A stretch of 64,000 nt of DNA. It comes from Pararhodonellum marinum (GTDB taxonomy: Bacteria; Bacteroidota; Bacteroidia; Cytophagales; Cyclobacteriaceae). Position numbers and translations under genes: made by a program. This document shows positions 2,547 through 51,676 of this stretch, piece by piece (positions within the stretch are counted from its first letter, which is position 1; every line of letters begins with the position of its first letter). The stretch covers positions 17,093-81,092 of the forward strand of contig NZ_JACEFJ010000019.1 of assembly GCF_015354735.1 (NCBI RefSeq), in the 5' to 3' direction. The notes under the pieces are model-generated. The model worked only from the letters and a program-made list of their open reading frames with translations, was not told where the DNA came from and did no database searches.

Positions 2547-2582
2547 AAAACAAGTCTTTCGATTAAGAAAGACTTGTTTTTT
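2547..2582 (+). terminator. Rho-independent terminator after the lipoprotein gene
   Basis: Perfect hairpin AAAACAAGTCTTTC-gattaa-GAAAGACTTGTTTT followed by TT, 20 nt after the stop. Confidence 0.7.
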
Positions 2583-2791
2583 CATCTCAGATTTTCCTGA
2601 AGTAATCACTTTGAGTCAGGGATTGATGAATAGTAAGGAAACCATTCATTGACATTGGGTAAGGAATGAAAGGAAGTTTGTTTTTCTAAAAATTTGATGG
2701 TGAAATCCCATGTTTATGTGGTCTGACCTTTTCAGATCAATGCAACCTAGTGTGTGGAAATCCAATCATTATATAACCAATCAATAAGAAA

Positions 2792-3532: not shown

Positions 3533-3570
3533 TATCCAATGGAATTGACCAATCTAAAACAGAATATGAA

Positions 3571-4098: not shown

Positions 4099-4181
4099 AA
4101 AAAATTAGTATGATAAACAACTGAAAATAAATTAAATAGATAAAGTATATTAGAAATTTATTTAATAACCTAAAGTAGATC

Positions 4182-13414: not shown

Positions 13415-13529
13415 AAAAAAACCATACCTCAGATTGAAGTTTCCATACTTCACTTTGAAGGAGGCCAAGTAACGGTATTTTTTGGGCGAATAAGCCGAAT
13501 TTTGGACCGATATAGGTTTCAGAAATACT

Positions 13530-14405
13530 TTGAAAATGGCTATATGGCCGATGTCCTCATTTAATTTTATGTTAATCAAAATGAAGTCTACCACTATTAT
13601 TTTCATCTTGTTGGCATTGAGTGTCAATCTCGGTTTCTCCCAGGAAGAAGGAAAGAAAAACAGTCTAGGTTTAAGCTTGGGCTATGCACAGCTCCAAAGG
13701 CAGGATTTGATTTTCTCGCCATTCGTCCACCGTGATACATCTTTTCCTTCGGTGGGAATCCATTTTGAAAGGAGGTCAAAATTATACCATAAAGTGGCTG
13801 TCAATTATGTGAATTTTGACCCGATGCTTGATGGTCCCTTTGATTTTTTTCTTGATGGGGAGCAAGAGACCGCTTACCCGCACTCCCTTAATTTTGTCGA
13901 TCTGGATTATCTGATAGGGAAAAGTAAAATGATCAATGACCGGTCTTCCATTATTAAGGGAGTGTTGTTCAGTACCAATATTCAGGCTTTGAATTATGTG
14001 TATGGAAGGATCAGCAGTTTTGGATATTTAGCTACAATTGGTCTCGGGATTTTCGGGAATTATGAATATGATTTGAATGAAAGGAACACACTGTCGGTAT
14101 CTCTGCGGCTTCCTCTTGTTTTTTGGAAAGCTAGATCTCCTTATCTGGTCAACGATGACGAATTTATTGAGAACATCAGTAGTCATTCTGGCTTAAAAAC
14201 CTTTGCGGCTTTTTTGGGAGATGGCAAACCTGTGACTTTGAATAGGATCCAACAATTTGATTTAATGATGAAATATTCCTACCAAGTCAATGAAAGATGG
14301 GGTATCGGGGCTACTTATTGGTTGGAGTTCATCCATTCAAATGATCCTAGGGGATTGCTGTCCTTTAGGAACACACTCAATTTTTCAGGCACTTATTTAT
14401 TTTGA
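13530..14405 (+). CDS. Hypothetical outer-membrane beta-barrel-like protein
   Basis: Signal peptide (start probably at 13587, MKSTTIIFILLALSVNLGFSQ). Alternating amphipathic strands, with a terminal aromatic (YLF). Confidence 0.4.
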   Translation: MKMAIWPMSSFNFMLIKMKSTTIIFILLALSVNLGFSQEEGKKNSLGLSLGYAQLQRQDLIFSPFVHRDTSFPSVGIHFERRSKLYHKVAVNYVNFDPMLDGPFDFFLDGEQETAYPHSLNFVDLDYLIGKSKMINDRSSIIKGVLFSTNIQALNYVYGRISSFGYLATIGLGIFGNYEYDLNERNTLSVSLRLPLVFWKARSPYLVNDDEFIENISSHSGLKTFAAFLGDGKPVTLNRIQQFDLMMKYSYQVNERWGIGATYWLEFIHSNDPRGLLSFRNTLNFSGTYLF

Positions 14406-14408
14406 GAT

Positions 14409-15428
14409 ATGAATACATTATTGAAATACCTTACGTCATTGGTCCTGTTCATAGGAATGGCAGCTTGTGAGCCAATGTTTACTGAACAACCTTCAATGGA
14501 CCCAGAAGCTATTTTTGAAAATCTCTGGACAACATTTCTTCAGGAATACGCCCCATTTGAAGAAAGAAATGTGGATTGGGAAATGGAGTATTCCCGTTTT
14601 AGACCAATGATCAATTCCTCTACATCGGATGAAGAATTGTTTGATGTTATATCGGATTTGTTGGAAACATTAGATGATGGACATGTCAGCCTGACCGCTC
14701 CAGGTAAGGAGATATATTTTGCCAATCGTATCAGACGGGAGAAAATTGATGAAGGTCTTTTTGATTTGGATGTCATCCAGAACAATTACCTCGAAAACAT
14801 CAGAATGGATGAAGACCAAAGCTACATTTACGGTAAAATCAAAAATGAGAATATCGGATACATTTTCTTTGATTTTGTTGGGGATAACTTTTTCCGTATG
14901 CATGATTTTCTGAATGAATTTGAAAATGCAGATGGATTGATCATTGACCTTCGTCACAATCAGGGTGGAGATTTTACGTATGCTTTTTCCGAAATCGGCA
15001 GGTTGACAGATCAGAGAAGGTTTGTTTTTAAGAGCAAAACCAAAAATGGTAAAGGGAAAGATGATTTTACACCTTGGTTTGATTGGTATCTCAATCCCTC
15101 AGGAAATTACCTCGAAATCCCCATTGTTGTCCTTACGGATCGGTTTACCATCAGTGCGGGGGAACGGGCTGTAATGGCATTCATGACTATTCCCAATGCA
15201 ATCACACTTGGAGATACTACTAACGGTGCCCACGGAACCATGATCGGGAGAGAATTGGCCAATGGCTGGTTTTACTCATTGGTGCCTCAAAAGGTGGAAT
15301 TGTTTGATGGGAAAAATTATGAAGGCATTGGTTTGCCTCCGGACATTTTTTTCAAGAATAAGCTGGAAGATGTGGTCTCAGGAAAGGATGAGCTGTTAGA
15401 AAATGCCATAAGTAGACTAAACAATTAA
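14409..15428 (+). CDS. S41 family peptidase
   Basis: LIIDLRHNQGGDF is the S41 signature, and the Ser nucleophile region FTISAGERAV is present. There is also a signal peptide. Confidence 0.7.
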   Translation: MNTLLKYLTSLVLFIGMAACEPMFTEQPSMDPEAIFENLWTTFLQEYAPFEERNVDWEMEYSRFRPMINSSTSDEELFDVISDLLETLDDGHVSLTAPGKEIYFANRIRREKIDEGLFDLDVIQNNYLENIRMDEDQSYIYGKIKNENIGYIFFDFVGDNFFRMHDFLNEFENADGLIIDLRHNQGGDFTYAFSEIGRLTDQRRFVFKSKTKNGKGKDDFTPWFDWYLNPSGNYLEIPIVVLTDRFTISAGERAVMAFMTIPNAITLGDTTNGAHGTMIGRELANGWFYSLVPQKVELFDGKNYEGIGLPPDIFFKNKLEDVVSGKDELLENAISRLNN

Positions 15429-15660
15429 CTCAAGTATGATGTTGAAACCATCTATTATATTTAGGATAAGGTAATTTTTTTTATGACAATAATTCAAAAT
15501 GATTTCTGAGTATCCTTAAATCTCAGGATTGTATCAATTAATTGGGTCAAAAATCATCCGGCAAGCCTTCCCGATGCTGAGGGGCTCGAGGAAAGGGGGT
15601 TAGGCCGGGGAAATTTTTAAATCCAATGCAACCAAACTATAGGGATTTGTATCTTTTTCA

Positions 15661-16353
15661 ATGAAACCCCATCGTAAAAGCATGCTTGTCCACAGACCAA
15701 AAAAAATCCTTCTTCTAGGTGCCACAGGCAGAACAGGAAAAGAAGTGCTCAAAGAAGCTTTGGAGCATGGATGCAAGGTGAATGTATTGGTTCGAGATGC
15801 CCAACAAATCCATGATCAACACCGAGACCTGCGGGTATTTGAAGGGGATACCAGAGTACCCGCTGACCTCAGAAAATCTATTGCTGGCTGTGAGGCTGTT
15901 ATCAGCTGTTTGAATATATCCAGAAAAAACGATTTTCCATGGGCTCCGCTGAGAACACCTGAATACTTTCTTTCCATGACCATGAAAAGCCTAATTGCAG
16001 TCTGTAAGGAAGAGGGAGTCAAAAGGCTTATCTTCACATCAGCTTGGGGAGTAGGGGATAGCCGACCCCATATTCCTGGCTGGTTTGCTTGGATCATAGA
16101 TAATAGCAATCTCTCCGCGGCTTATTTGGAGCACGAAAGGCAGGAGGCTTTAATTAGTCAATCAGGCTTGGATTGGACCGTCATACGACCTGTGGGGCTA
16201 ACAAATAGTAAGACAAAAAAGGTTGTAAATGTTGTCTTGAACCATGAAAAAAAGCCCTCTTATACCATTAGCAGAAGATCTACAGCCTCTTTTATCCTAG
16301 CATCTTTGATGGATCGGAAATATATCCATACCTACCCCGTTATTTATTCTTGA
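15661..16353 (+). CDS. NAD(P)H-binding protein (atypical SDR / NmrA-like)
   Basis: Rossmann motif ILLLGATGRTGKEVL at the N-terminus. Confidence 0.7.
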   Translation: MKPHRKSMLVHRPKKILLLGATGRTGKEVLKEALEHGCKVNVLVRDAQQIHDQHRDLRVFEGDTRVPADLRKSIAGCEAVISCLNISRKNDFPWAPLRTPEYFLSMTMKSLIAVCKEEGVKRLIFTSAWGVGDSRPHIPGWFAWIIDNSNLSAAYLEHERQEALISQSGLDWTVIRPVGLTNSKTKKVVNVVLNHEKKPSYTISRRSTASFILASLMDRKYIHTYPVIYS

Positions 16354-38202: not shown

Positions 38203-39171
38203 TTAAATCCTATTAAATCTGTATCGATAATCTACAGGTGACATGTCCACATATTTTTTAAATACATCGCGAAAGGCTTTTGGATCACTGTAGCCTACTG
38301 CATACATGACTTCATTGACTTGCTTTTGCCCCGATTCCAACTGGAGTTTGGCTGCTTCTATCTTTACCCTTTGCGTGTATTCAATCAGTGAATTGGACGT
38401 TGCTTTTTTAAATCTCCTTTCTAGGGTTCTTCTGCCAATTCCAAACCGTTCAGCCAGTTCCTCCACTGAAAATTTCTGGTCAAAATATTTTTCCAGGTAT
38501 TCCTGAATGGCTAGAATTAAATCATCTCCATGATTTTTTTGCCCTTTGAATAGGGCGAAAGGCAATTGACTGTTACGTTCAATATCAAGGAGAAAAAACT
38601 TGGAGGCCATGATGGCCATTTCTCTGTGGGTGTGTTTTTCCACCAAATAGAGCAAAAGGTTCCAATAGGCATTGGCCCCGCCACTTGAGTATAGGCCATT
38701 TTGTTCTGAAATGATTCTGTTGTCCACCAACTTTACTTCAGGAAACATCTCTTTGAAAGTGGGGGCATGGAGCCAGTGGGTAGAACAGGTTTTTCCGTTG
38801 AGTAAGCCGGTCGAGGCCAACAGAAAAGCACCAATACAGAGGCTTGCTACTTCGGCACCTTTCAAATATTGGGCTGAGATCCATGGATAAAATGCCTGAT
38901 TAAGCGCAATGGCTTCCTTGATATCCCCAGAGATCGCGGGTATGATGATCAAGTCAGTGGAGGTAACCTCATCCAGCAAAGTATCAGGATGAAAGCTTAC
39001 CAAACCATGGTTGACCATTACTTCTTTCTGCAACCCGACCAATTGAACCTTGAAGGCTGGTTCAAGGTCCATATTTTCCAGAAACATATTGATGGCGGAA
39101 AACATGTACTGAGGATCTACCACTGCGGCGGGAACCGCCCTTTCAGGTACAAGAATGGAGACAGTCTTCAT
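38203..39171 (-). CDS. GlxA-type AraC-family transcriptional regulator with N-terminal DJ-1/PfpI domain
   Basis: DJ-1/PfpI-like N-terminal half with a Cys elbow (EVASLCIGAFLLA). C-terminal AraC HTH (YAVGYSDPKAFRDVFKKY). Confidence 0.75.
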   Translation of the reverse strand: MKTVSILVPERAVPAAVVDPQYMFSAINMFLENMDLEPAFKVQLVGLQKEVMVNHGLVSFHPDTLLDEVTSTDLIIIPAISGDIKEAIALNQAFYPWISAQYLKGAEVASLCIGAFLLASTGLLNGKTCSTHWLHAPTFKEMFPEVKLVDNRIISEQNGLYSSGGANAYWNLLLYLVEKHTHREMAIMASKFFLLDIERNSQLPFALFKGQKNHGDDLILAIQEYLEKYFDQKFSVEELAERFGIGRRTLERRFKKATSNSLIEYTQRVKIEAAKLQLESGQKQVNEVMYAVGYSDPKAFRDVFKKYVDMSPVDYRYRFNRI

Positions 39172-39267: not shown

Positions 39268-39456
39268 TCAGCTTTTGTCATCCGTTCTTTTGAGCAATCC
39301 AAGTCCTGAACTGAAAAAAATAATACCTAAAATAAAAAAGACAAGGATGGTTTTCCAGTCACTGTTTTCACTGTTGAGAAAAAGATAGGCGCTATAAATT
39401 AATCCGCCTATGCCTGCTACGGTCAGGAGGGGGCCGAAAATTCTTTTGAGATTCAT
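39268..39456 (-). CDS. Small two-TM membrane protein
   Basis: 62 aa with two hydrophobic helices, immediately upstream of the giant gene's 3' end. ORF only. Confidence 0.3.
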   Translation of the reverse strand: MNLKRIFGPLLTVAGIGGLIYSAYLFLNSENSDWKTILVFFILGIIFFSSGLGLLKRTDDKS

Positions 39457-39590: not shown

Positions 39591-42500
39591 TTAATCCTTT
39601 GTTTTTTTAGGATTGGTGAGGGCTTTTTTGATGCCCTCTAAACCCTCTACAAATAGTGACATCTGACCGATGACTTGAGACATCCTGTCCTGATCACCTA
39701 ATCCCCTGATCCGGTTGTTGCGAACGAAGGCCTCTTTGATGGCTTCCCATCGTTTTTGCATGGAAGGATCCAATCTTCCCATCATTTCCGCCAATTTCAA
39801 CAGGTTGGATTCTGCGTCTGAAGTCAGGGTTTGAGACTCATTTTGATAATGGTCCAAAACCAACTGTATGACTTCTTCATCATTGAGGATAGGGACCAGC
39901 ATGCCCATCAATTTGTTCATGTCCCGATAGGAACCCTGCAGCTTAAAGGGAGGTTCAGTCCTGTAGTCATCAGACATGGCAGCAGAAGCAATGTATTGGG
40001 CGTTGACCATGAGAAGCACATCCCTGAGCATGATGGTCATTTGCAAAACTCGGATGCAGTCTTTTATCTCTTGAGCGGAAAGATTGCCTTCCAAATCAGG
40101 CAATTGAGTTTCACCGTTTTCAATGAATTGAATCAGTTTGTATAAATTTTCCATACCAAACTGCGCCATGGATTTCAGATTTTGATTTGAGGTCAATCCA
40201 TTTTCGATCAAACTCAGCTCAAATAACTCTTTCCTATTGGAGGCGGTATCACCCAAGTTGTAAATATCGGCACGGTTGGACAACATGTCCGGGATTTGGA
40301 ATTTGTCCCCGCTTTCTGTGTAGGGATTTCCTGCCATGACTACGCAGAACCGCTTTCCTCTGAAATCATAGGTCTTGGATTGTCCGTTGAATACCCCTTC
40401 GATCTTGCGCTGACCGTCAGCCAGAGAGATGAATTTCTGCAAAAACTCGGGATTGCAATGCTGTATGTCATCCAGATAAAGCATCACATTGTCACTCATC
40501 TCAAAGGCCAGATTTAGTTTTTGTAATTCCTGACGTGTGGCGGCATTTCTTGCTTCTGAAGGATCCACAGAGGTAATTTCATGCCCTATGGAAGGTCCGT
40601 TGATTTTCATAAAGATCAGCCCCAGCCGGTCGGCCACGTATTCCATCAAGGTTGTTTTCCCATACCCGGGGGGAGAAATCAGCAATAGCATTCCTGAACG
40701 ATCTGTGCGCTTATCCAGTCCATAAGCACCAAGCTGCTTGGCGAAGTTGGCCCCGATCATGTTGAAATAGACCTGATTGATCAGTTTGTTCCTCACAAAC
40801 GAAGTCAAGACTTGCGTTTGGAATTCATGCAACCTTAAAGATTGTTTTTTCTCTTCGATTAACTGATGTTTGATTTCTTGAAGTTTCAAAAAGCGAGGCC
40901 TGGCATGTGTTGTAAATTGGTTTAATCTCTTGACAAAGTCATGGTAGTCAAAAAGGTAAACATTAGATTCCTCTTGGCCTATGGGAGCCTTGAGATTTTC
41001 AACTTCGGTCAATCCATTGACAAATAAGACGTTAGGTTGATTTGAACTATGGGTAATAAGCAAAACGGTTAACTCATCCAAAACTCCTTCTGAAACATTT
41101 TCACCATCATTTTCAGCAAAAGTTTCGACCCATTGTCTGCAGAGATGCCATACCTCAGCAGGGTAGGAGGTAATTTCATCCTGGGCATCTTGAAAGGTCA
41201 GGTCTGCATTTTTCGATTTCAGCGATTTTTTAAACGCCTCATGGAGTTCAAAAGCTGATTTTTCACAGACAAAGCCATCAGTGACCTGTTCTTCTGACAA
41301 ATACAAAGCGGATTGAAAGGGGTCGCTTTGTTCAAATAATTTATACTTTTTGGAAAAGCTTTCAATTTTCTCACCCAATAATTTGATGAGATGCTTTTGT
41401 TCTTTGGTTTGGGGAAAAGCTTGTTTGAGCAGGTTGAGAAAAACAAATTGCTTTTTAAAGAACATCTTTTCCTCCGGATCACAGAAATGCCAAAACAATT
41501 GGGCCAAAACCCTTGTCTGAGCGGCAAAACGAAGCAATCCCAAGTCTCTGTCTTTTTCAAGCAATATTTTCAAAAGGACTAAGGCATCATGGTCGTGGAC
41601 ACCTTTGACATATCCTTCTCCGTAATGGCTGGCGATATGACGGTCAATGTGGTTTTTGATCAACGCATCTGTGAGGGCTTGCCGCTTATCCAATGACTCA
41701 AAAATTTTCCATGCCAAATACTCTGAACGGTGCACCTCTTTGTTTTCAGAAGGCAATTCCTGATTCCATACATCCTGAAGTTGGTTGAGTTCCTCTTTAT
41801 TTACAGCTTCATAATAGGATGTGCCGGTCAGGTGATAATGATATTTCCTGTCTCTGACTACCAGTGTCAGATCGAGCTTCTGATTGTTTACAGCAAATCT
41901 AAAATCCCCCAATTTGATGACGTTTTTGCCATCTTCAAACAGCTCATTTTTGTCTTTCAGAGCTCTAATGGCTTCCTGCTGAAGTACCTGAATCTGATTG
42001 AGCAAATCTTCGGACTTGGCTGAATCATCCAGTTTCTGAAGCTGTTTGGCTACATCCCTGACTTTATCCACCATCAGGTCTGCAGCAAAATATCCGTTGA
42101 TTTCTACTTCGGTGGTAAAACTGGCAGCCCTTGATTTGATCCCATTTAGTATACGTTCCGCTGATGCGAAAAGGGAGTTTGTCCTTCGGTTTCTGGCTTC
42201 TGTAAGATTCACCTTTTTGGATTCGAAGGCAGCATAGATGGCTTCCCTCTTTTCTCCGATTTTTTCCACAAACTCGTCAAAATCAGCAAACTTACCCTCT
42301 AGTTCCTCCAGATGTATGGATAATTTGGTCAGGTATTCGTCACATTTGGCAGGTTCGTTAGCCAAGTCAAGATAATTGACGATGGATTGTTCAAACAAGG
42401 TCATCTGAGCTTGAAAATCAGCCCTCGCCTCCTTCTGACCCAATTGTCTTCTTTGGGTGTTGAGGTTGACTCTTTCTTGATTGAGCTGGGCAAAAATCAA

Positions 42501-44471
42501 GGATATGTTTTCTATGATCTGCGTAGAATGAGCCGTATCCTCTACTTTGAGGTTATTGACAATGTCAATCAACATTTCCAGTTGACGGGAAAGGTTGTCA
42601 AACTCCTGTTCCAAAGCCCTGGCATCGATTACTTTGGTAAGCTTCTGTACTGATGCTTTCAAGGTATCCATGCTGGATTGATAGAAATCCAAGGCATCAT
42701 CCTGAAGCAAAAACTGTACACAGGCTTCAGCAAGCTCATCTGCCCGCTCGGCAACTTTTTTTTCCAACTCCTCAACCAAATCTAAATCCACGTACCTAAG
42801 GTTTTTCAGCCCGATGATCTCTCCTCTGATGCTTCTCATTTGTGAAAGCAGGGAGACATACTGATCCAGGCTCTCAAAATTGGCCCTTCTTGTGTCAAAG
42901 ATAATTTTGTCTACTTTTTCTTTGACGGTTTGCAGCGATTTAGCTGTATTTTGTCTGATCTGTACGACTTTTTCAAATTCGTCGATGGCGGAAACAGCGA
43001 TTTCCTTGATCTGCGAAAGCGGCTGCTGCAGGCCAACAGCGCTTCCGTTTTTGAGCCAGAAGTAACCATCAAGAATGCTTTGGCTTCGCCTTTCGAGGTC
43101 TTCATAAAGACCGTTGTAACTGTCTTCCTTGTTGAGCAAAACCACCAGTTCCTGGATTTCCGCCATGGCTTTTACAATATCCCTGTTGCCAATCTTGTAC
43201 AACTCCTTGTCCTTGTAGGCTTCATTTGGGAGCAGTTCTTTGGCATAGGGTGTTTGCCATATCTGGATGAGGTGATGGGTTCCCGGTTCCTTTTCCGTAT
43301 TGAAATAGCAAAGTTCTCCATCAGCAAAAAGGGTATAGCCATTGCAAAATATGGGTGTTTTGACGGTTTGCTCGATTACATTGTAGGAGAGGATGACAAA
43401 GTCATGGTTTTTCTCTTCATAAAAAATAAAAAGGTAATCCTCGCCGTTGGGAGACTGCACCTTTCTAAGGAATTTGACCCCTTCAATTTTCCTGTCAAAC
43501 AGCTTGTATTCCCCGGTCTGTAAATAATATCCATTGGACAGGATGATTCCCTGATGATCCGGCAACAATATGCCTGCGTCCTTGAGGGTGTCTACGCGGA
43601 TGACGTTTTTTACCCTCGAATTAAAAATGAAATACCTGTCACTTTCCAGATAAGGGCGGATTTTTAGTAAAACCAGATTGCCTAGGTCACAAAAATGAAT
43701 TTCAGCATCATCGAGTGACTGGTCTTTCTGTTCGACTTCTTCCGAATAAATACCCAAACCATCATCCGTATTGTCCTCCACTTTAATGGTTAGATTACCA
43801 CTCACGGTTTCTACAAAAACCTTATCCACGATAGAGATATGGGGGTTTTTGCCAGCCCGCTGCATGTCACGGGTGGCCCTGGACCATTCAAATTCGTGCT
43901 GTAAGGGAAATTTGATTTCAGCAGCACTCCGGGAATCAATGTACTGCAATTTTTCATTTTGGATCAACCACTTGAAAGCCTTGATATCTGTAGGACTCTC
44001 AGACAATTGAAATACCATGTACAGGAAATTTCCCGAAACAAAAAAACGGGAAAATTGGGTGTTTCTGTAGAATTTGTAAAGGTTTTGAAGCTCTGCGGCA
44101 AAGGTTTGGTCTTTGATGATATCCAGAGGAAGCGGATGAAATTCATGGTTGTCAAATTTGTAGACATTGAAGACATCGTCCACTTCTAGGACCGTTTTAA
44201 GTCCTAACCGTACGTTATACCCGAATAGGCAGATTCTTCCCACCGAAACAATGTCCCTTGCCATGCAATTGTGCTGGGTCGTGATTCTGATGTTGGACAA
44301 CAATTTGAAATCCACCACCCCAAAAATCAACTGCCGGTCCTGATTAAGGATTTGAAGTTGCTCGATGAGTTCTTGGCGCTGCTGTTGGAGCCTGTTTTGA
44401 ATGATTTCGTAGGTACCTTTTTCTATATTCCTGTCCATATACGGTAAAATCCTAATTCGGTCGTAAGTCAA
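39591..44471 (-). CDS. Giant (1626 aa) coiled-coil-rich protein with C-terminal AAA+ (AAA_5/MoxR-dynein-like) ATPase module
   Basis: A single uninterrupted ORF. Walker A ISPPGYGKTT is encoded at ~40650-40690. Atypical Walker B VMLYLDDIQH. Sensor-like FCVVMAGNP. The N-terminal ~1150 aa are rich in heptad/coiled-coil segments. It is the last gene of the PspA/flotillin operon. Confidence 0.6.
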   Translation of the reverse strand: MTYDRIRILPYMDRNIEKGTYEIIQNRLQQQRQELIEQLQILNQDRQLIFGVVDFKLLSNIRITTQHNCMARDIVSVGRICLFGYNVRLGLKTVLEVDDVFNVYKFDNHEFHPLPLDIIKDQTFAAELQNLYKFYRNTQFSRFFVSGNFLYMVFQLSESPTDIKAFKWLIQNEKLQYIDSRSAAEIKFPLQHEFEWSRATRDMQRAGKNPHISIVDKVFVETVSGNLTIKVEDNTDDGLGIYSEEVEQKDQSLDDAEIHFCDLGNLVLLKIRPYLESDRYFIFNSRVKNVIRVDTLKDAGILLPDHQGIILSNGYYLQTGEYKLFDRKIEGVKFLRKVQSPNGEDYLFIFYEEKNHDFVILSYNVIEQTVKTPIFCNGYTLFADGELCYFNTEKEPGTHHLIQIWQTPYAKELLPNEAYKDKELYKIGNRDIVKAMAEIQELVVLLNKEDSYNGLYEDLERRSQSILDGYFWLKNGSAVGLQQPLSQIKEIAVSAIDEFEKVVQIRQNTAKSLQTVKEKVDKIIFDTRRANFESLDQYVSLLSQMRSIRGEIIGLKNLRYVDLDLVEELEKKVAERADELAEACVQFLLQDDALDFYQSSMDTLKASVQKLTKVIDARALEQEFDNLSRQLEMLIDIVNNLKVEDTAHSTQIIENISLIFAQLNQERVNLNTQRRQLGQKEARADFQAQMTLFEQSIVNYLDLANEPAKCDEYLTKLSIHLEELEGKFADFDEFVEKIGEKREAIYAAFESKKVNLTEARNRRTNSLFASAERILNGIKSRAASFTTEVEINGYFAADLMVDKVRDVAKQLQKLDDSAKSEDLLNQIQVLQQEAIRALKDKNELFEDGKNVIKLGDFRFAVNNQKLDLTLVVRDRKYHYHLTGTSYYEAVNKEELNQLQDVWNQELPSENKEVHRSEYLAWKIFESLDKRQALTDALIKNHIDRHIASHYGEGYVKGVHDHDALVLLKILLEKDRDLGLLRFAAQTRVLAQLFWHFCDPEEKMFFKKQFVFLNLLKQAFPQTKEQKHLIKLLGEKIESFSKKYKLFEQSDPFQSALYLSEEQVTDGFVCEKSAFELHEAFKKSLKSKNADLTFQDAQDEITSYPAEVWHLCRQWVETFAENDGENVSEGVLDELTVLLITHSSNQPNVLFVNGLTEVENLKAPIGQEESNVYLFDYHDFVKRLNQFTTHARPRFLKLQEIKHQLIEEKKQSLRLHEFQTQVLTSFVRNKLINQVYFNMIGANFAKQLGAYGLDKRTDRSGMLLLISPPGYGKTTLMEYVADRLGLIFMKINGPSIGHEITSVDPSEARNAATRQELQKLNLAFEMSDNVMLYLDDIQHCNPEFLQKFISLADGQRKIEGVFNGQSKTYDFRGKRFCVVMAGNPYTESGDKFQIPDMLSNRADIYNLGDTASNRKELFELSLIENGLTSNQNLKSMAQFGMENLYKLIQFIENGETQLPDLEGNLSAQEIKDCIRVLQMTIMLRDVLLMVNAQYIASAAMSDDYRTEPPFKLQGSYRDMNKLMGMLVPILNDEEVIQLVLDHYQNESQTLTSDAESNLLKLAEMMGRLDPSMQKRWEAIKEAFVRNNRIRGLGDQDRMSQVIGQMSLFVEGLEGIKKALTNPKKTKD

Positions 44472-44610
44472 AAATTGTCACCAATAAAATGCCCTTAAAG
44501 ATCATGCTTGGTTTCTGTGGATAATTGAGAGCCGCTGACCTTAGTGAAATTCAGGGCAGAAAACCGCAAATTATCCATACTAAAGTTTTTGAAGGATTAA
44601 AAGGAGGATC

Positions 44611-46638
44611 CTACATGATCCTCCTGTTTTCTACTCCCATCCCTTTGGCTAAATTCAGCATGTTGGTCAAAAAGCCCTTGTCCTGGTCAGAGGCTTTCAT
44701 TTGAATCTGAGCAATCAAAGCGGCAATGGATAGGTTTTTCAAATCCTCAGTCGTTATCCCATACTTATTGGCAATGTTGCGGATTTTTTCCACCAGATCA
44801 TTTGGGGTGTCGTCTTTGCCGTTTTCACCCAAAAAGGCATCTTTGAACTGGGCAACCGTATGGGAGTGTTCCACCATTTTGTCGATTCCTTTTCCGGTTG
44901 ATATTTGCTTGATCAGGTTGTCGAAGAAGGTGTTGTCTCCTCCCACAATATCAATTTTCGCGGTTTTAAATGCTTCTGCAAGCACTTTGGCCTGTGCATC
45001 TGCGATGTCCTTTTGGATACTGATTTGCGCCAATTCCACATCCTTCTCTTTTTGAAGCTTTAGCCTGAATTCTTCGTGTTCCTTACCGGCATCATTCAGT
45101 TGTTTCATGGCTCCGGCTTTTTCATTGATGCCTTTGGCTTCTGCGATGGCTTTTTCTTGGATCACCTCAGCTTCTGCCAAACCTTCTTTACGTTTCGCTT
45201 CCGCTATCTTCTCAATGACTATGGCATCTACCATTCCCTGTCTTTCCAAGGCATCGGCCTTGGCATGCATCACCTGAGCCTCTGACATACCGAGCGTGGC
45301 TTCCTCCTTGGCTTTTGCTTCTGCGATGATTTTTCGGGCATCAGCCTCTTTGTCTGCAGCATCTTTTTTCGCATTGGCCTCAATGATGATTTTGGCAGCT
45401 TCATGTTTGGCTGATTTCTCTTTTGATTCAGCAGCTTTTACTTCTTCAATCAGGTTTTTCTCAGCTTCTTTGGAAGCAATAATCAATGCAACATCTTTTT
45501 GCCTGTTCGCTTCTTTAAGGGCTTCAACATCCTTGATTTTCTCTTGCTCTTCTACCACGGTTTTTTCCATGGCTACCCTTTCTCTTATGGCATCCTGAAT
45601 GTTTTTCTTTTCGATTTCAACTGCTTTTTCTTTTTCGATCTGAGCCAAAGCTACCACTCTTTCTCTTTCAGTTGCTTCGATATCCCGGTCTTTTTTGACC
45701 CTTTCGGTTTCTACTGCCTCGGCCCGTTCTTTGTTCTTTGCCGCAATGATGACTTGCCGCTGTTTGTTTTCTTCCTGGATTTCCAGTTGTTCCTCAGTCC
45801 TGATTCGGACTTCTTCTGACTTGAGTTTTTCCTGAACCGTCACCTTATCGATTTCAGCTTGTTCACGTGCTTTTATGGTCTCAATTTCACGTCTCTGGGA
45901 CTCTTCTTTTTCTTTCAGCTGTTTTTCAAGTTCCAGAATGGCTTCTCTTGCTTCCACATCTTGCTTTTTGATGATTTTTTCCTCGTCTCTGCGGATGAGA
46001 TTTGCTTTGATGTTTTGCGCTGCGGTCAGTTCTGTGATTTTCTTGATACCTTCTGCATCCAGGATATTATCCGAATCCAGGTTCTCGATTTTGGTTTGTT
46101 CCAGGTAATCAATGGCACAATCATCCAGAACATAGCCGTTGAGATCGGTTCCGATGATATCGATGATTTCATCGCGAAATTCCCTTCTTGCTTCATAGAG
46201 TTCTATGAACTCGAATTTTTTACCCACACTTTTCAGTGCTTCAGAAAATTTGGCTTCAAACAGGCTTTCCAAGGTTTCATGGTCAGAAGCCCTGGCACAG
46301 CCTATGGTCTGGGCTACATTGATGATGTCCTGCACGGATTTGTTGACCCTTACAAAAAAGGCCACTTTGATGTCAGCCCTCATGTTGTCTTTACAGATCA
46401 ACCCATCTTTGGTCATCCTTGAAATCTCCAGTTTTTTGACGGAAATATCCATGATTTCTTCTTTATGGAGTATGGGAATTACCATTCCGGCATTGAAGAA
46501 TATCCTTACACCACCCTGACCCGTTCGCACCAACACCCGGCCCTGGCTTACTTTTTTGTACATTGAAATGAGCCACATGAATAGCCCCAATAGCACGATT
46601 ATACTGACTCCTGCTATCACATAAAAAGATTCCATCAT
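44611..46638 (-). CDS. Flotillin family (SPFH/band-7) protein, YqiK-like
   Basis: N-terminal TM, then the SPFH region (YKKVSQGRVLVRTGQGG...). The ~400-aa C-terminal half is a long EA/KE-rich coiled coil, typical of bacterial flotillins. Confidence 0.8.
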   Translation of the reverse strand: MMESFYVIAGVSIIVLLGLFMWLISMYKKVSQGRVLVRTGQGGVRIFFNAGMVIPILHKEEIMDISVKKLEISRMTKDGLICKDNMRADIKVAFFVRVNKSVQDIINVAQTIGCARASDHETLESLFEAKFSEALKSVGKKFEFIELYEARREFRDEIIDIIGTDLNGYVLDDCAIDYLEQTKIENLDSDNILDAEGIKKITELTAAQNIKANLIRRDEEKIIKKQDVEAREAILELEKQLKEKEESQRREIETIKAREQAEIDKVTVQEKLKSEEVRIRTEEQLEIQEENKQRQVIIAAKNKERAEAVETERVKKDRDIEATERERVVALAQIEKEKAVEIEKKNIQDAIRERVAMEKTVVEEQEKIKDVEALKEANRQKDVALIIASKEAEKNLIEEVKAAESKEKSAKHEAAKIIIEANAKKDAADKEADARKIIAEAKAKEEATLGMSEAQVMHAKADALERQGMVDAIVIEKIAEAKRKEGLAEAEVIQEKAIAEAKGINEKAGAMKQLNDAGKEHEEFRLKLQKEKDVELAQISIQKDIADAQAKVLAEAFKTAKIDIVGGDNTFFDNLIKQISTGKGIDKMVEHSHTVAQFKDAFLGENGKDDTPNDLVEKIRNIANKYGITTEDLKNLSIAALIAQIQMKASDQDKGFLTNMLNLAKGMGVENRRIM

Positions 46639-46650
46639 AGTCTAATTGAT

Positions 46651-47277
46651 TTAAAGTTGATATTTTTGAGCTAAGAAATATTTTTTGTCGGAAGACTCCT
46701 CCAAAATGATGACTGTATCATTGAACAGGATAAAATCCCCATCGATGGATTTGGCATAAATCCTTATCACATCATTTTCAATGCTGATTTCTACCTGTCC
46801 GATTTTCTCCTTTCCCATAGGAGAGATTACTTTACCGGTTTTTCCAATAAAATCAATGGCTTCCTCCCCCTTGTGGTTGAAGTGCCCATAAAGCTTTACA
46901 AATGGCCTTGCTACTACCTTGGTAATCAACATGCTGATGACTAATCCGGGGACATAGACAAGAAATCCAAGCAGGCTATCTGAGATTCCCAACAGGGCGG
47001 TGACATTGACGTTGATCAACCACATGCAGAAAATCACAATGGAAAGGATGAACATGATCGGCAACTCACCTATGTAGAGGAATTCCAATACAGCGGACCA
47101 AAATCCCTGGCCATCTGCACTCCCCACTTCTGGATTGTTGATGTCCGCATCTGCCTCAGCCAAATCCAAATCAAAACCAGTAAAGATGATCACCAACCAA
47201 TAAATTAGGATGATGATGGCCAATAGGGTTAGGATGAAGTTGGCAGGGGCAAAAGATATCTCGATGAGTCTTTCCAT
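46651..47277 (-). CDS. NfeD-like membrane protein (YqiJ family) with C-terminal OB-fold
   Basis: An N-terminal multi-TM region plus a C-terminal soluble beta-rich segment (GKTGKVISPMGKEKIGQVEISIENDVIRIYAKSI). It sits 12 nt upstream of the flotillin gene, as in yqiJ-yqiK and NfeD-flotillin pairs. Confidence 0.55.
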   Translation of the reverse strand: MERLIEISFAPANFILTLLAIIILIYWLVIIFTGFDLDLAEADADINNPEVGSADGQGFWSAVLEFLYIGELPIMFILSIVIFCMWLINVNVTALLGISDSLLGFLVYVPGLVISMLITKVVARPFVKLYGHFNHKGEEAIDFIGKTGKVISPMGKEKIGQVEISIENDVIRIYAKSIDGDFILFNDTVIILEESSDKKYFLAQKYQL

Positions 47278-47348
47278 AACTTTTTATGCTAACATTACCT
47301 GTTTCATTTAATTGACAAGAGATTGATTAGAAAGGGGAGAGGCAGGAT

Positions 47349-48041
47349 TTAAAGGCCCATGTCCTTTTTCATCTGTGCCAATTCATCCTCCACCGATAAG
47401 TCCTCCAAGGCTTTCTTGAGCTTTTCCTCATGGGTGATGCTACTTTGGGCCATTTCCCCATAAGCTTGAGCCAATGCTTCATCCTGAGCCACCTTGTTTT
47501 TCATTCTTTCAAGCATAGATACTACACTTGTGCTGTCCATATTGGTCATCTGCTTGTTGATTTTTTGGGTTGCACTGCTGACTTTGATTCTTGCCCTCAA
47601 AGTGCCCAATTCATTTTCCCATTGGTGGATGCCGGCTTTGATCCGGTTCACATTTTGTTCCAGTGTGGCCACCTGCTTTTCAAGATTGCTCACTTCCTCT
47701 TTGATGAGCACGATCTCTTGGCTGATGCTGGCCTTTCTTCTTAGGTTTTCTTTGACCAAAGTGTCCGCTTCAGCACTGTCGATTTCACCTTGTTGGGCTT
47801 TTTTCAACAAGATCACAGATTTATTCTGTAGGTCTGTCTCGGTATTGAGGTGCTCATTGAGGTCTTTTGTCCTGCGAATGTGCATGGCTTTCACCTCAGC
47901 CAAAGCCTTCACAGCTTTGTCTTTGTTTTCGTTCATGTCCCGAAGCCCCTGCTCAATCATTTTGATAGGGTCTTCTAGTTTGTCAATGGCAGAATTGGTT
48001 TCCGCTTGTCCTATTTTGAATAATCTTCTTAAAACGTTCAT
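47349..48041 (-). CDS. PspA/IM30 family protein (Vipp1/ESCRT-III-like; YjfJ-like)
   Basis: The N-terminal ...AIDKLEDPIKMIEQGLRDM... is the PspA signature. The protein is all-helical with coiled coils and is 230 aa. Confidence 0.85.
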   Translation of the reverse strand: MNVLRRLFKIGQAETNSAIDKLEDPIKMIEQGLRDMNENKDKAVKALAEVKAMHIRRTKDLNEHLNTETDLQNKSVILLKKAQQGEIDSAEADTLVKENLRRKASISQEIVLIKEEVSNLEKQVATLEQNVNRIKAGIHQWENELGTLRARIKVSSATQKINKQMTNMDSTSVVSMLERMKNKVAQDEALAQAYGEMAQSSITHEEKLKKALEDLSVEDELAQMKKDMGL

Positions 48042-48053
48042 GTTTGTACCGGT

Positions 48054-48443
48054 TTATTTTGAAAATGACAATATTTCGTTTGAATATTCAGAGAGCAATA
48101 GGCCCAGAGAATTGATGGTGCTCTCCAATTCTTTGAGGTCCAAGGTCTCCGCTTGCAATGTATTTCTGAAAATAACCTTTCGGCCGGTTTCATCCAATAC
48201 AAATGCCCCATGCACAATGTCCCTGTTCTTGATCAGCAACTGCTTGTAGATGTTGGCTTCATCTTTCAGATCAAACAGGTACTGCTCAATGATTACTATG
48301 GGGGTGGCTACCCCGATCACCATGTTCTTGACCCCGATATCCTCGTTCTCGATGACCAATAAATTATCGGCCTCGTTTTCATATTGAATTACCGACCCAA
48401 GTTCCAAAGCAAATTCCTTTACGACTTTAAAATATTTATCCAT
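48054..48443 (-). CDS. YbjN/DUF2170-like (YjfI-like) small cytoplasmic protein
   Basis: 129 aa, acidic, with no TM. Its position as the first gene, 12 nt upstream of the PspA homolog, mirrors E. coli yjfI-yjfJ. The assignment is from context and size, not a motif. Confidence 0.4.
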   Translation of the reverse strand: MDKYFKVVKEFALELGSVIQYENEADNLLVIENEDIGVKNMVIGVATPIVIIEQYLFDLKDEANIYKQLLIKNRDIVHGAFVLDETGRKVIFRNTLQAETLDLKELESTINSLGLLLSEYSNEILSFSK

Positions 48444-48525
48444 AATTGACTTTTTAAAGTGTTTTTTTAAAAATGAACTATATTTAGATGGACTGTTTCA
48501 CAATATTAAATATTTTTTTTAGTTA

Positions 48526-48565
48526 TGCAAATAATATTAGCTATTTTTTGCTAATTTTATTTGCA
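48526..48565. promoter_or_regulatory. Imperfect 16-bp inverted repeat (candidate operator) in the divergent promoter region
   Basis: TGCAAATAATATTAGC-N8-GCTAATTTTATTTGCA, with 15 of 16 positions complementary. It lies 26-65 bp upstream of the XRE regulator ATG and ~80-120 bp upstream of the operon's first gene. Confidence 0.45.
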
Positions 48566-48590
48566 ATATTTATTACTTATCTTTACTGCC

Positions 48591-49226
48591 ATGTCAAAAT
48601 ACGGAAAGAACATCAAAAAAATCCGCAGTGTAAGAGGCCTTACCCAGGCCCAACTCGCTGAAATGCTAGAGGTCAGCAGGGGTGTCATCAGTTCTTATGA
48701 AGAGGGAAGAGCCGAACCAAAAATCGAAACCATTTTAAAAACGGCTGAAGTTTTCCACCTCTCTACAGACATCCTACTTTCCAGCAATGTGACCGTCAAT
48801 CAGTTGAGTGGATTTAATCTTCCTGATTTGTTAGGTAATCAGGAAGAAAAGTCTGTAAAACTTGAGGAACTTAAACTATCCTCTCATTTATTTCCTGAAA
48901 ACATTTGTTTGTTTCCGAGTTATCAAATAAAAGCAAATCACTACCTTCAAGCAAATGACATCGTATTTGCCCTGCCTGCACAGCCTGTAAAGGAAAAACT
49001 GGTAGTAATGAAATTGGCTAGTGGATATGTGATTGGGAAAATAAAGGCTATCAAAGAAAAGCATATTACCTTGGATGATGAACAATATTCCAATGAGGAA
49101 ATTTCCGATGTTTATGAAATCACCGGATTTTATAGTCCTTATTCGGATAAATCATCCTTGGAAAATAAATTGCAAGAGCTTGAAAAAAGGATAATAGAAT
49201 TAGAACGACGGACAGAAAGCCAATAA
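48591..49226 (+). CDS. XRE-family HTH transcriptional regulator with C-terminal coiled coil
   Basis: The N-terminal IRSVRGLTQAQLAEMLEVSRGVISSYEEGRAEP is a Cro/C1-type HTH. The C-terminus has LENKLQELEKRIIELERR. Start taken at the ATG at 48591; the track starts at a TTG at 48561. Confidence 0.7.
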   Translation: MSKYGKNIKKIRSVRGLTQAQLAEMLEVSRGVISSYEEGRAEPKIETILKTAEVFHLSTDILLSSNVTVNQLSGFNLPDLLGNQEEKSVKLEELKLSSHLFPENICLFPSYQIKANHYLQANDIVFALPAQPVKEKLVVMKLASGYVIGKIKAIKEKHITLDDEQYSNEEISDVYEITGFYSPYSDKSSLENKLQELEKRIIELERRTESQ

Positions 49227-49372: not shown

Positions 49373-49966
49373 TCAAAGACTCCACGAATTACCAATCTCT
49401 TCCAAAGGCACACAACCCCTGTACTCTCCCGGAATGGGATCGTAGTTCAGATGGTTTTTGCCTATTTCCTCCGACGAGAAATAAGCCCACAAAGCCATCG
49501 ATTTCAAAGAGCGGTAAAAACCCACCGGTGGCTGTTCTCCCACTGTGGTTCCCCAAACTTTCCCGTTGAATTTTGGAGATGACATTTCTGCTTTTTGCAA
49601 AGCCTTTATCTTGTCTTCCTCTTTTAAGTCGGTAAATACTTTTCCAAACTCGGCTTTGATGGCTGCATTGAACTGATCGATATCATTTTTCACCTTTTCC
49701 TGTGCTTTTCCATCGTAGGTTTTTGCAAAAACCGCATCCAAAAAGATATCCGTTTTCACATCCAATGCGCCAGGGGTGTCGGTTTTTGGAAGTAAGGTAT
49801 CTACAAATGCAGATACAAATCGGGCTTGCTCTTCATTGAGGAAAAGTGGTTTCCAGTCCAGCCTGGATTGTTTGTTGCAGGATTGCAGTAGCGATAACAG
49901 GGTAGGAGTAGCTATAGCAGAACCAGCCAATACCAAGGTGTTTCTTAATGCGTTTCTTCTATTCAT
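49373..49966 (-). CDS. Gluconate 2-dehydrogenase subunit 3 family protein (Tat-signal small subunit)
   Basis: Twin-arginine signal MNRRNALRNTLVLAGSAIA. It sits 4 nt downstream of a GMC oxidoreductase. Confidence 0.65.
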   Translation of the reverse strand: MNRRNALRNTLVLAGSAIATPTLLSLLQSCNKQSRLDWKPLFLNEEQARFVSAFVDTLLPKTDTPGALDVKTDIFLDAVFAKTYDGKAQEKVKNDIDQFNAAIKAEFGKVFTDLKEEDKIKALQKAEMSSPKFNGKVWGTTVGEQPPVGFYRSLKSMALWAYFSSEEIGKNHLNYDPIPGEYRGCVPLEEIGNSWSL

Positions 49967-49969
49967 GGC

Positions 49970-51676
49970 TTAAAGATTCATTTTTTTCAATTCGGAAACC
50001 GCATGGTCAGCTGCCCTTGCTGTAAGTGCCATGTAGGTGAGTGATGGGTTGACACAAGATGATGAGGTCATGCATGCCCCATCAGTGACATACACATTTT
50101 TGCAGCCATGCACCTGATTGTTTCCGTTGAGCACGGAAGTTTTGGCATCTCTTCCCATGCGTGCAGTTCCCATTTCGTGGATGCCAAATCCGGGTTCATG
50201 TTGGTTGTCAAAATCAAGAATGTCTTTCAACCCGGCTCTTTCCAGCATTTCTTTGGCATCTTCCCTGATCTGCTTGTTCATGGCTTTTTCATTTTCCTTG
50301 AATTCCGCATCAATCGAAAGGGTAGGCTGTCCCCATTTGTCCAGCACGCCTTTGTTTAGGGAAACTTTGTTGTCATGATAAGGGAGGCATTCTGCAAATC
50401 CGGTAATGAAAAATTCCCATGGGCCCGGCTTCATCAACCGGTCTTTAAAGTCCGCTCCAAAATCATCCATATTGGCACCTGCGCCCCAGCCTGCACGGCC
50501 TGCACCGCCTTGGTAACCAAATCCCCTAAGGAACTTGTCCGATTTGGTTTGCTCATCCAAATTGACATACCGAGGAATATAAATGCCGTTCGGCCTTCTT
50601 CCACTGTAATATTGGTCTTCATACCCCTCAAATTTACCCATAGCCCCTACGCGGTAGGTATGGTCCATCAGGTTATGTCCCAATTCACCACAGTCATTGC
50701 CCATACCTTCCGGGAACCGGTTGGAGGTGGAATTCAGCAGAATCTGCGTACTGCTCAAAGCTGAGGCATTGCAGAAGACGACTTTTGCATAATATTCTAT
50801 TTCCTCATGGGTTTCGGAATCTATGATCCTGACTCCTTTGGCTTTTCCCTTTGATTCATCATAGATGATCGATTGTACAATGGAAAACGGCCGGATGGTT
50901 AGGTTGCCTGTAGCGTTGGCAGCGGGTAGGGTGACCGCATTGCTGCTGAAATAGGCCCCATAGGGACAGCCTCTGTCGCATCGGTTTCTGTATTGGCATT
51001 TGCCTCGGCCATTGAGCGGTACGGTCAAGTGGGCTGCTCTGCCAATGATCAAATGTCTTCCCGGATAATCCTTTTCCAATCTGTTTTTGATATCCTTTTC
51101 GACACAATTCAGCTCCATGGGGGGAAGGAAGTGACTGTCAGGGAGGTGAGGAAGCCCTAAGGCTTCGCCGCTGATTCCGGCAAATTTCTCCACATAAGTG
51201 TACCAGGGTGCTAGGTCCTTGTAGCGGATCGGCCAGTCCACCCCATGTCCATCCTTTGCATTGGCTTCAAAGTCCAGGTCTGATAATCGATAACACTGCT
51301 TTCCCCACAAAAGTGATCGGCCACCCATCTGATGGGCCCTAACCCAGAGAAACGGTTTGACTTCTGTATATGGATTTTCCTGGTCATTGGCATGAAAATG
51401 CTCATTGGTCTCTCCAATGAAACCGGACCGAATCCCTTTATAATGCTTTTCTTGCAGCTCAGGACTGATTGAGCCTCTTAATTCCATGTCCCATGGGTCA
51501 AGGTTCATGGTTGGATAATCTTTTACATGCTCTACCAGTCGGCCCCTTTCCAAGACCAGGGTTTTCAATCCTTTTTCGCAGAGCTCTTTAGCAGCCCAGC
51601 CACCGCTGATGCCGGAACCTATGACTATGGCGTCATAAGTTTGGTTACTTTTTGCGTCTATGTTAAAATTTGCCAT
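49970..51676 (-). CDS. GMC family oxidoreductase (FAD-dependent)
   Basis: The N-terminal FAD motif DAIVIGSGISGGWAAKEL. The C-terminal GMC region with His (NQHEPGFGIHEMGT). Confidence 0.8.
   Translation of the reverse strand: MANFNIDAKSNQTYDAIVIGSGISGGWAAKELCEKGLKTLVLERGRLVEHVKDYPTMNLDPWDMELRGSISPELQEKHYKGIRSGFIGETNEHFHANDQENPYTEVKPFLWVRAHQMGGRSLLWGKQCYRLSDLDFEANAKDGHGVDWPIRYKDLAPWYTYVEKFAGISGEALGLPHLPDSHFLPPMELNCVEKDIKNRLEKDYPGRHLIIGRAAHLTVPLNGRGKCQYRNRCDRGCPYGAYFSSNAVTLPAANATGNLTIRPFSIVQSIIYDESKGKAKGVRIIDSETHEEIEYYAKVVFCNASALSSTQILLNSTSNRFPEGMGNDCGELGHNLMDHTYRVGAMGKFEGYEDQYYSGRRPNGIYIPRYVNLDEQTKSDKFLRGFGYQGGAGRAGWGAGANMDDFGADFKDRLMKPGPWEFFITGFAECLPYHDNKVSLNKGVLDKWGQPTLSIDAEFKENEKAMNKQIREDAKEMLERAGLKDILDFDNQHEPGFGIHEMGTARMGRDAKTSVLNGNNQVHGCKNVYVTDGACMTSSSCVNPSLTYMALTARAADHAVSELKKMNL

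Follow-up and report, generated by a model that had tools for sequence, protein, structure and literature searches.

A 64,000-nucleotide (nt) stretch of the Pararhodonellum marinum genome (contig NZ_JACEFJ010000019.1, positions 17,093 to 81,092; referred to here as the window) carries a compact six-gene cassette at window positions 39591-49226. Five minus-strand genes code, in order of transcription, for a CesT/Tir-superfamily chaperone-like protein, a PspA/IM30 protein, a short NfeD-like membrane protein, a flotillin-like SPFH protein, and a giant AAA+ ATPase, and a divergent plus-strand gene codes for an XRE-type regulator (Table 1). An earlier note on this DNA, made from its letters alone, had described this arrangement, and all six open reading frames (ORFs) are found on the strands and with the gaps that it gave (12, 71, 12, and 139 nt between the minus-strand ORFs as first called). 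Its coordinates and strands hold, with the exception of two start codons. The ATPase ORF was first called at 44471-39591 (1626 amino acids [aa], with a TTG start), but ATG 44438 is most likely the true start, because the resulting 1615-aa product matches the NCBI entry for P. marinum at 100% identity and homologues align from that methionine; the gaps then become 12, 71, 12, and 173 nt, the last separating the flotillin and ATPase genes. The divergent ORF, first called at 48561-49226, most likely begins at ATG 48591 and codes for 211 aa, because all 33 XRE homologues open with MS(F/K)(F/Y)GKNIKKIR; the TTG-extended form would run into the palindrome described below.

Table 1. Genes, protein domains, and predicted control elements of the P. 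marinum cassette (window coordinates)
Feature	Position	Strand	Description
Giant soluble ATPase	39591-44438	-	1615 aa; DUF3686, DUF7902, AAA+ module
Giant ATPase, AAA+ module	40317-40688 (Pfam match)	-	Preceded by a long helical middle region, followed by a conserved C-terminal helical domain
Giant ATPase, DUF7902	42444-42698	-	Pfam match; preceded by a helical bundle
Giant ATPase, N-terminal long helix and divergent beta-propeller (DUF3686)	~43059-44372	-	Pfam, 5.4e-183
RNA hairpin (predicted)	44602-44625	-	9-bp stem AGGAGGAUC/GAUCCUCCU, 6-nt loop; spans the flotillin stop codon, then UUUUAAU
Flotillin-like SPFH protein	44611-46638	-	675 aa; anchor aa 1-31, SPFH aa 29-226 (45961-46554), coil, conserved C-terminal region
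YqiJ/YuaF-type (short NfeD-like) membrane protein	46651-47277	-	208 aa; ~3 hydrophobic segments, soluble C-terminal domain
PspA/IM30 (ESCRT-III-fold) protein	47349-48041	-	230 aa; PspA_IM30, 1.5e-36
CesT/Tir-superfamily small chaperone-like protein	48054-48443	-	129 aa; first gene of the operon; CesT_Tir_1 (PF22550)
Candidate Bacteroidota-type operon promoter	48501-48531	-	-33 TTTG 48531-48528, 19-nt spacer, -7 TAATATTG 48508-48501
Candidate operator	48526-48565		Inverted repeat TGCAAATAATATTAGC / GCTAATTTTATTTGCA, 8-nt spacer; half-site consensus GCTAAnnnTATTTGCA
XRE-type regulator	48591-49226	+	211 aa; N-terminal Cro/C1 helix-turn-helix, degenerate S24 (LexA/CI)-like middle, C-terminal coiled coil

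The product of the first gene matches CesT_Tir_1 over its full length in Pfam (1.5e-51), with weaker matches to CesT and TY-Chap1 and none to DUF2170. Its earlier description as YbjN/DUF2170-like is thus right at the superfamily level and wrong at the family level. In the homologous loci described below the CesT-like gene always adjoins the PspA gene, and in Gammaproteobacteria a DUF2170 protein fills the same positional slot. The PspA/IM30 assignment of the second gene is secure, with a PspA_IM30 match of 126.5 bits (cutoff, 33.9) spanning residues 2-227 of 230 and a sequence match to solved Vipp1/PspA structures over residues 3-228 (3e-15).

The NfeD-like protein scores below the cutoff against YqiJ_N (18.7 bits; cutoff, 23), and a Pfam scan of its isolated C-terminal 83 aa gives no match. 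Its naming as YqiJ-like nonetheless holds for the family, 15 of whose 31 members match YqiJ_N (best, 3.6e-08); the NfeD profile is matched by a single member (0.0049). The flotillin-like protein has a single N-terminal membrane anchor by hydropathy and an E/K-rich coiled coil of ~300 residues, and because this coil dominates the query, the full-length protein has no match in Pfam, NCBIfam, or the PDB. The earlier SPFH/flotillin call is confirmed as SPFH only by a scan restricted to the N-terminal 243 aa (Band_7, PF01145; 1.4e-13, 51.7 bits, cutoff 23.6), and the N-terminal fragment has no match among PDB sequences. The match to the Pfam Flot domain is not significant (E = 5.3), and a profile of the family, which has a mean column identity of 59%, finds only the QmcA coiled coil in the PDB (0.0013), a match from which the subfamily is not assignable. 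The flotillin-like label fits the predicted architecture and the NfeD-like partner upstream, and Ravi et al. (PMC11237479) class the corresponding SPFH protein as a flotillin. The pair is organized similarly to YqiJ-YqiK of Escherichia coli and YuaF-FloT of Bacillus subtilis, with an NfeD-like gene directly upstream of an anchored, long-coil SPFH gene (SPFH2 operons, PMC2636767), although neither pair is accompanied by a giant ATPase, a PspA dyad, or an XRE regulator.

The giant ATPase has no hydrophobic segments in its hydropathy profile, and a Pfam scan of its middle region detects nothing beyond DUF7902. Its AAA+ module, correctly noted earlier as AAA_5-like, matches Pfam AAA (6.3e-08, 33.6 bits, cutoff 21.2) and AAA_5 (9.9e-07). 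Across 18 diverse giants the GYGKT of Walker A, the N of AGNP (sensor-1), and the R of NRAD (arginine finger) are invariant, as is a Walker B motif ending in DD rather than DE. The best structural matches of the module are MoxR-type, and its model shows a pre-sensor-1 hairpin, a feature that is absent from the classical AAA+ clade. The stretch from sensor-1 to the arginine finger reads AGNP-x8-F-x-IPDML-x-NR, which we take to be MoxR-like, and one source labels some relatives "MoxR-like ATPase." Since the structural ranking, the AAA_5 match, this stretch, and these labels agree, the module is assigned as MoxR/dynein-like, with only moderate confidence because the margin is small. MoxR proteins such as NorQ, CbbQ, and RavA are ~300 aa and are usually paired with VWA-domain partners; the giant differs in having ~1,250 aa of additional N-terminal propeller and helical domains and a conserved C-terminal domain, and in belonging to a cassette with no VWA partner. 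Some relatives (P0348, P0357, P0366, P0370, P0372-P0374, P0376, and P0392), of which those with names are Myxococcota, carry an N-terminal PilZ domain (PF07238), and this hints at cyclic di-GMP control of the ATPase in those lineages.

Both NCBI and UniRef name the giant a "DNA repair ATPase," following the Pfam description of DUF3686. A role in DNA repair, with the membrane-gene neighbors being incidental, is highly improbable: it draws on database names ("DNA repair ATPase" and "ATPase involved in DNA repair"), whereas Pfam scans of the giant reveal no DNA-binding or nuclease domain, RuvB-type matches are confined to the Walker A region and are far below cutoffs, and the near-universal linkage of the gene is to two membrane proteins and not to repair genes. 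A full-text literature search for DUF3686 found no paper, and the name is probably a propagated misannotation.

The giant is widespread: one homologue search at E ≤ 1e-50 gave more than 5,900 relatives, and the family covers about ten phylum-level lineages. More than 588 loci with relatives of the giant were collected at one genome per species, and the best 80 were analyzed with iterated profiles; 64 of these, with 5 kb or more of sequence upstream, are informative. The NfeD-like and flotillin genes lie directly upstream of the giant in 61 of the 64, and the NfeD-like gene is likewise directly upstream of the flotillin gene in 61. PspA is present upstream of the giant in 33, the XRE gene in 34, and all six genes in 32. 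The core of NfeD-like protein, flotillin-like protein, and giant is found in Bacteroidota, Planctomycetota, Verrucomicrobiota, Kiritimatiellota, Desulfobacterota, and Clostridia, and profile searches confirm the triad in Halopseudomonas, Vibrio, Streptomyces, and Myxococcus, adding Gammaproteobacteria, Actinomycetota, and Myxococcota. Clustering of flanking ORFs across the loci yields no further conserved partner. The core is a three-gene unit present in many phyla, its ATPase being soluble and ~1,600 aa long, and a CesT-superfamily gene and PspA precede it in Bacteroidota and Gammaproteobacteria.

The synteny that the earlier note had asked about is thus extensive, and it extends to genomes in which the same six genes, in the same order, have entirely different flanks, as in Marivirga harenae (giant 74% identical) and Chryseobacterium indologenes (53%). 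That the five genes are independent modules brought together here by chance might have been supposed from E. coli, in which, as the earlier note pointed out, the yjfIJ-type pair and the yqiJK-type pair occupy separate loci, and stand-alone dyads described by Ravi et al. are consistent with this; however, the gene order recurs in several classes of Bacteroidota and also in Gammaproteobacteria, where its flanks differ, and this effectively refutes a chance juxtaposition.

PspA is the facultative component beside the ATPase. Two Chryseobacterium loci (L004, Chryseobacterium aahli, and L051, Chryseobacterium sp. GP-SGM7) lack the CesT-PspA dyad although XRE gene, operator motif, and triad are all in place, so the dyad can be lost without loss of the regulator. 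The linkage of flotillin to the ATPase is constant, and for this reason flotillin, and not PspA, is the likeliest primary partner of the ATPase. This bears on the proposal of the earlier note that the giant is a dedicated, Vps4-like disassembly ATPase for PspA polymers, making the operon an ATP-driven, ESCRT-like membrane repair machine. An ESCRT-III-fold PspA does share the cassette with an AAA+ ATPase, both in Bacteroidota (32 loci) and in Gammaproteobacteria, and in Halopseudomonas a DUF2170-PspA operon lies directly beside the triad; triad-only genomes could carry PspA elsewhere, Ravi et al. propose ATP-dependent remodeling for PspA-AAA+ associations generally, and, according to a 2025 review, bacteria appear to have no Vps4-like ATPase, so that the niche is open. 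But about half of the sampled loci have no PspA adjoining the ATPase (33 of 64 with PspA, against 61 with the NfeD-like/flotillin pair), among them all those sampled from Planctomycetota, Verrucomicrobiota, Kiritimatiellota, Desulfobacterota, Clostridia, Actinomycetota, Myxococcota, and Vibrio, and the two Chryseobacterium loci dispensed with the dyad while keeping the XRE gene and triad. The giant is also ~4 times larger than Vps4, has a propeller, shows no MIT domain in Pfam scans of the whole protein or its segments, and has an AAA+ module that its best structural matches and its modeled pre-sensor-1 hairpin place outside the classical clade. The analogy thus fails as homology (no MIT domain and a MoxR-like module) and is weakened by the distribution, and we regard a dedicated PspA disassembly ATPase as unlikely.

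The Halopseudomonas dyad (L084:2830-3949) belongs to a different operon, divergent and ~1.3 kb from the triad, that also contains genes for a K+ channel, DUF2491, DUF350, and DUF1190 proteins; it represents a second, independent route by which PspA modules are placed beside the triad.

The earlier note regarded the architecture as uncharacterized, but it is already known from comparative genomics, and probably also from the bac operon of Pseudomonas aeruginosa. Ravi et al. (mSystems 2024, PMC11237479; preprint 2020) describe in section 19 a class of operons combining CesT/Tir-PspA, Band-7/flotillin, YqiJ/YuaF, and AAA+ genes, refer to the ATPase as a "novel AAA+ ATPase with coiled-coil and beta-propeller," and list in a supplementary table a Dokdonia donghaensis locus (ANH61663.1) with the same six genes, including a divergent "cHTH+Protease." They also report that abbreviated operons without the PspA dyad are more widely distributed, and PspA-Band-7-NfeD and flotillin-NfeD associations are described by Popp et al. 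(2022) and Hinderhofer et al. (2009). The window cassette agrees with this class in gene content, gene order, divergent regulator, the domain architecture of every protein, and phylum (Bacteroidota), and differs only in that the S24-like part of its regulator is shortened and undetectable by Pfam. The published description is purely computational and does not include the operator motif, the hairpin after the flotillin gene, or the AAA+ clade.

The P. aeruginosa operon bacABCDEF ("biofilm-associated cluster," PA3732-PA3727; PMC10948618, PMC13086221) is likely the counterpart of the window operon. Its genes follow the same order of CesT-superfamily chaperone, PspA, short NfeD, SPFH protein, and ATPase: BacA is a DUF2170 protein whose crystal structure has a type III secretion system chaperone fold, BacB, BacC, and BacD are a PspA, a short NfeD, and an SPFH protein (PaFlo3), respectively (PMC10948618), and BacE (PA3728) is an ATPase annotated as "involved in DNA repair." All six genes are cotranscribed as determined by reverse transcription-PCR (RT-PCR), loss of bacA raises BacB-F 6- to 13-fold, and bac mutants have osmotic, biofilm, rhamnolipid, and virulence phenotypes (PMC10948618); PA3728-PA3732 are also induced on phage infection (PMC12041424). 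The operon is stress induced and negatively influenced by BacA. It differs from the window operon in that its chaperone is DUF2170 and not CesT_Tir_1, a sigma-54 promoter is proposed rather than a divergent XRE repressor, and a sixth gene, bacF, follows the ATPase, a position occupied by rhomboid and PLD genes in related genera. P. aeruginosa is absent among the matches listed in homologue searches aimed at placing PA3728 in the family; Hahella and Cellvibrio have the order DUF2170-PspA-NfeD-like-flotillin-giant, with a DUF3686-AAA+ protein as the giant, followed by rhomboid and PLD genes. An iron-stimulon paper, consulted for expression of such operons in Bacteroidetes, mentions NfeD and SPFH, but these mentions could not be tied to the present cassette.

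In Bacteroidota, the cassette is putatively controlled by the divergent XRE protein acting as a repressor. The earlier report of an adjacent divergent XRE regulator with a palindrome is well founded, with an HTH_3 match to the regulator (2e-12, Pfam) and palindrome arms at 48526-48541 and 48550-48565 that are 16 nt each and complementary at 15 of 16 positions. HTH_3 is matched by 34 of 34 XRE family members and Peptidase_S24 by 15 (best, 4e-09), but not by the window protein; a Pfam scan of the isolated XRE C terminus also gives no match. The column corresponding to the catalytic serine of the S24-like region is Glu or Ala in nearly all members, with Ser only in L015, and the segment bearing it is deleted in the window protein. 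LexA-style self-cleavage is therefore unlikely, as the S24-like domain lacks its catalytic serine, and was rejected as the induction mechanism.

The half-site GCTAAnnnTATTTGCA is kept across Bacteroidota families. Related loci totaling 1.72 Mb contain 37 copies of it with up to one mismatch, 28 of these in the XRE-operon intergenic region (in 25 of 34 XRE loci) and nine within XRE genes, and the half-site is absent from the sampled loci without an XRE gene; in the window it occurs only in the palindrome. The -33/-7 consensus is an established promoter arrangement in Bacteroidota, and the -33 TTTG of the candidate operon promoter sits inside an operator arm. A TAnnTTTG element (up to one mismatch) faces the operon 18 to 20 nt downstream of the motif TTTG in 22 of the 25 motif-bearing loci, compared with a background rate of 6.6%. 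A protein occupying the repeat would cover the predicted -33 element, which supports the repressor model. This overlap of operator and -33 element is a conserved feature, new from the present analysis, that is absent from the literature consulted on this operon class.

A second copy of GCTAAnnnTATTTGCA lies within the XRE coding region in L002-L007, L034, L051 (Chryseobacterium), and L064 (e.g., L002:5453), ~340 to 480 nt from the intergenic site, and may be an auxiliary operator or DNA-looping site; the window XRE gene has no internal copy at up to one mismatch.

A second predicted control element is the GC-rich hairpin that spans the flotillin stop codon. It has a minimum free energy of -19.6 kcal/mol (z = -3.5), and none of 200 shuffled sequences folds as well. 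Among 69 loci, the median minimum free energy at the junction that follows the flotillin gene is -18.4 and the median z is -2.8, with z < -2 in 61%, compared with 0 to 9% at the CesT, PspA, and YqiJ junctions and 25% at the one downstream of the giant. Loci of Gammaproteobacteria, Actinomycetota, and Myxococcota share the hairpin. It too is conserved, absent from the literature consulted on this class, and new here. The hairpin is a candidate attenuator, or a processing or stabilizing element, ahead of the ATPase gene, and together with the spacer it can be read as punctuation that reduces ATPase expression relative to that of the scaffold genes or uncouples the two. Termination at this position, if any, would be partial, because RT-PCR in P. 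aeruginosa shows read-through. The earlier description of a single transcription unit accordingly needs qualifying, given the stable hairpin at the flotillin stop codon in the window and in most homologous loci.

The spacer between the flotillin gene and the giant (44439-44610 in the window) holds unrelated inserted genes in L014, L023, L043, L044, and L066, coding for an IS200-type Y1 transposase, DMP19 and DUF3997 proteins, a DUF559 protein, an M54-like peptidase, and an AbiEii toxin, and it appears to be a permissive insertion point. The triad of Vibrio chagasii (L085) lies between RNA-ligase, HD/kinase-like, and R2K genes (2575-5232) and HipBA and TelA genes (13191-16303), a neighborhood of the stress or conflict-island type, unlike that of the window.

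These mobile and toxin genes (IS200-type transposase, AbiEii, DUF559, and DMP19), together with the Vibrio neighborhood, raise the question of whether the module serves in anti-phage defense or another conflict, with a large regulated NTPase, sensing through its propeller, working alongside membrane effectors. Defense loci often contain XRE regulators, there are weak PADLOC helix-turn-helix matches, and PA3728-PA3732 respond to phage. Induction by phage is, however, classical behavior of Psp stress systems and not evidence of immunity. PADLOC gives no meaningful match for the five operon proteins, only coiled-coil noise (PspA with JetC/LmuB) and a P-loop fragment (E = 0.0027), no integrase genes lie beside the cassette in the window or in the other loci examined, and the window flanks are ordinary metabolic and regulatory genes. 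Flanks are also conserved among Chryseobacterium species, suggesting vertical inheritance, and we consider a defense function to be quite improbable.

The cassette is probably a repressor-controlled envelope or membrane-stress module, an instance of the described class, composed of the three-gene core and a CesT-PspA add-on, with the ATPase acting on the scaffold. In this model, an XRE dimer on the inverted repeat GCTAAnnnTATTTGCA, which holds the -33 element, would repress the operon until a signal relieves it, and it probably also represses its own gene, as the conservation of the site suggests. Induction would switch on the genes for the chaperone, PspA, the NfeD-like protein, and flotillin together, and the hairpin would lower or separate expression of the ATPase, giving an abundant scaffold and a scarce enzyme. 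By homology with solved SPFH/NfeD cages, the flotillin-like and NfeD-like proteins are predicted to form a membrane scaffold facing the cytoplasm, and PspA, by homology with PspA/Vipp1 polymers, would polymerize on the stressed membrane. The CesT-like protein may hold or regulate PspA, a role that BacA plays toward BacB in P. aeruginosa. The giant would oligomerize through its AAA+ module and, to judge from gene linkage, could engage the flotillin/NfeD scaffold with its propeller and coiled-coil region, perhaps engaging PspA secondarily, and spend ATP on assembly, turnover, or client handling. This would be akin to HflK/C-FtsH and prohibitin-m-AAA, which, like SLP2-PARL-YME1L, combine an SPFH scaffold with an AAA+ machine at the membrane; the likeness is a functional analogy with no homology implied, as the window ATPase is soluble, lacks a protease domain, and is MoxR-like rather than FtsH-like.

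Several points weigh against the membrane-stress interpretation. For P. marinum and for all Bacteroidota it is a prediction from genes and sequence, and the partnership of ATPase and flotillin within it comes from gene linkage. The C-terminal OB-fold of NfeD and the flotillin-specific Pfam domain were not detected by sequence in the respective proteins. Membership of bacE (PA3728) in the family is inferred from its published annotation and from the Hahella, Cellvibrio, and Halopseudomonas loci, and the percentages derived from the 80 analyzed loci, being those most similar to the query, are a biased census. Part of the motif conservation may come from the promoter itself rather than from a repressor site, and the DD Walker B motif may mean that ATP hydrolysis is slow, regulated, or partner dependent.

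The ATPase belongs to a very large family that nearly always sits beside a flotillin/NfeD-like pair, yet is labeled "DNA repair ATPase." To the published class the present analysis adds a testable operator/-33 overlap and a hairpin, ties the ATPase more tightly to flotillin than to PspA, and describes it as MoxR-like rather than Vps4-like. Any Vps4-like role of the giant would have arisen by convergence, with flotillin rather than PspA as the constant partner. That the giant is such a convergent bacterial counterpart of Vps4, disassembling or recycling flotillin cages and, where the PspA dyad is attached (Bacteroidota and Gammaproteobacteria), PspA polymers as well, is a doubtful reading; if true, bacterial membrane repair would gain its missing energy-consuming step. 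The cassette is a reasonable place to seek turnover machinery for flotillin and PspA assemblies, and tractable hosts that carry it include Chryseobacterium, Flavobacterium, and probably P. aeruginosa.

The Gammaproteobacterial cassettes carry a gene for a rhomboid intramembrane protease by the giant (L084:4430-4987, L088:12387-12944, and L089:12390-13617), and Cellvibrio also has a PLD-family gene. This combination of rhomboid, SPFH, and AAA+ proteins recalls the mitochondrial SLP2-PARL-YME1L hub. In the window, a 62-aa ORF with two predicted transmembrane helices (39268-39456, minus strand) lies directly downstream of the giant; its position is not conserved, its sole match in related loci (L078) is far from the cassette, and it was dropped from the system. 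The window cassette is flanked by a gene for an AraC/DJ-1-type regulator (38203-39171, minus strand) and by a Gluconate_2-dh3 and GMC-oxidoreductase pair (49373-51676, minus strand), neither of which is kept beside the cassette in the other genomes examined.

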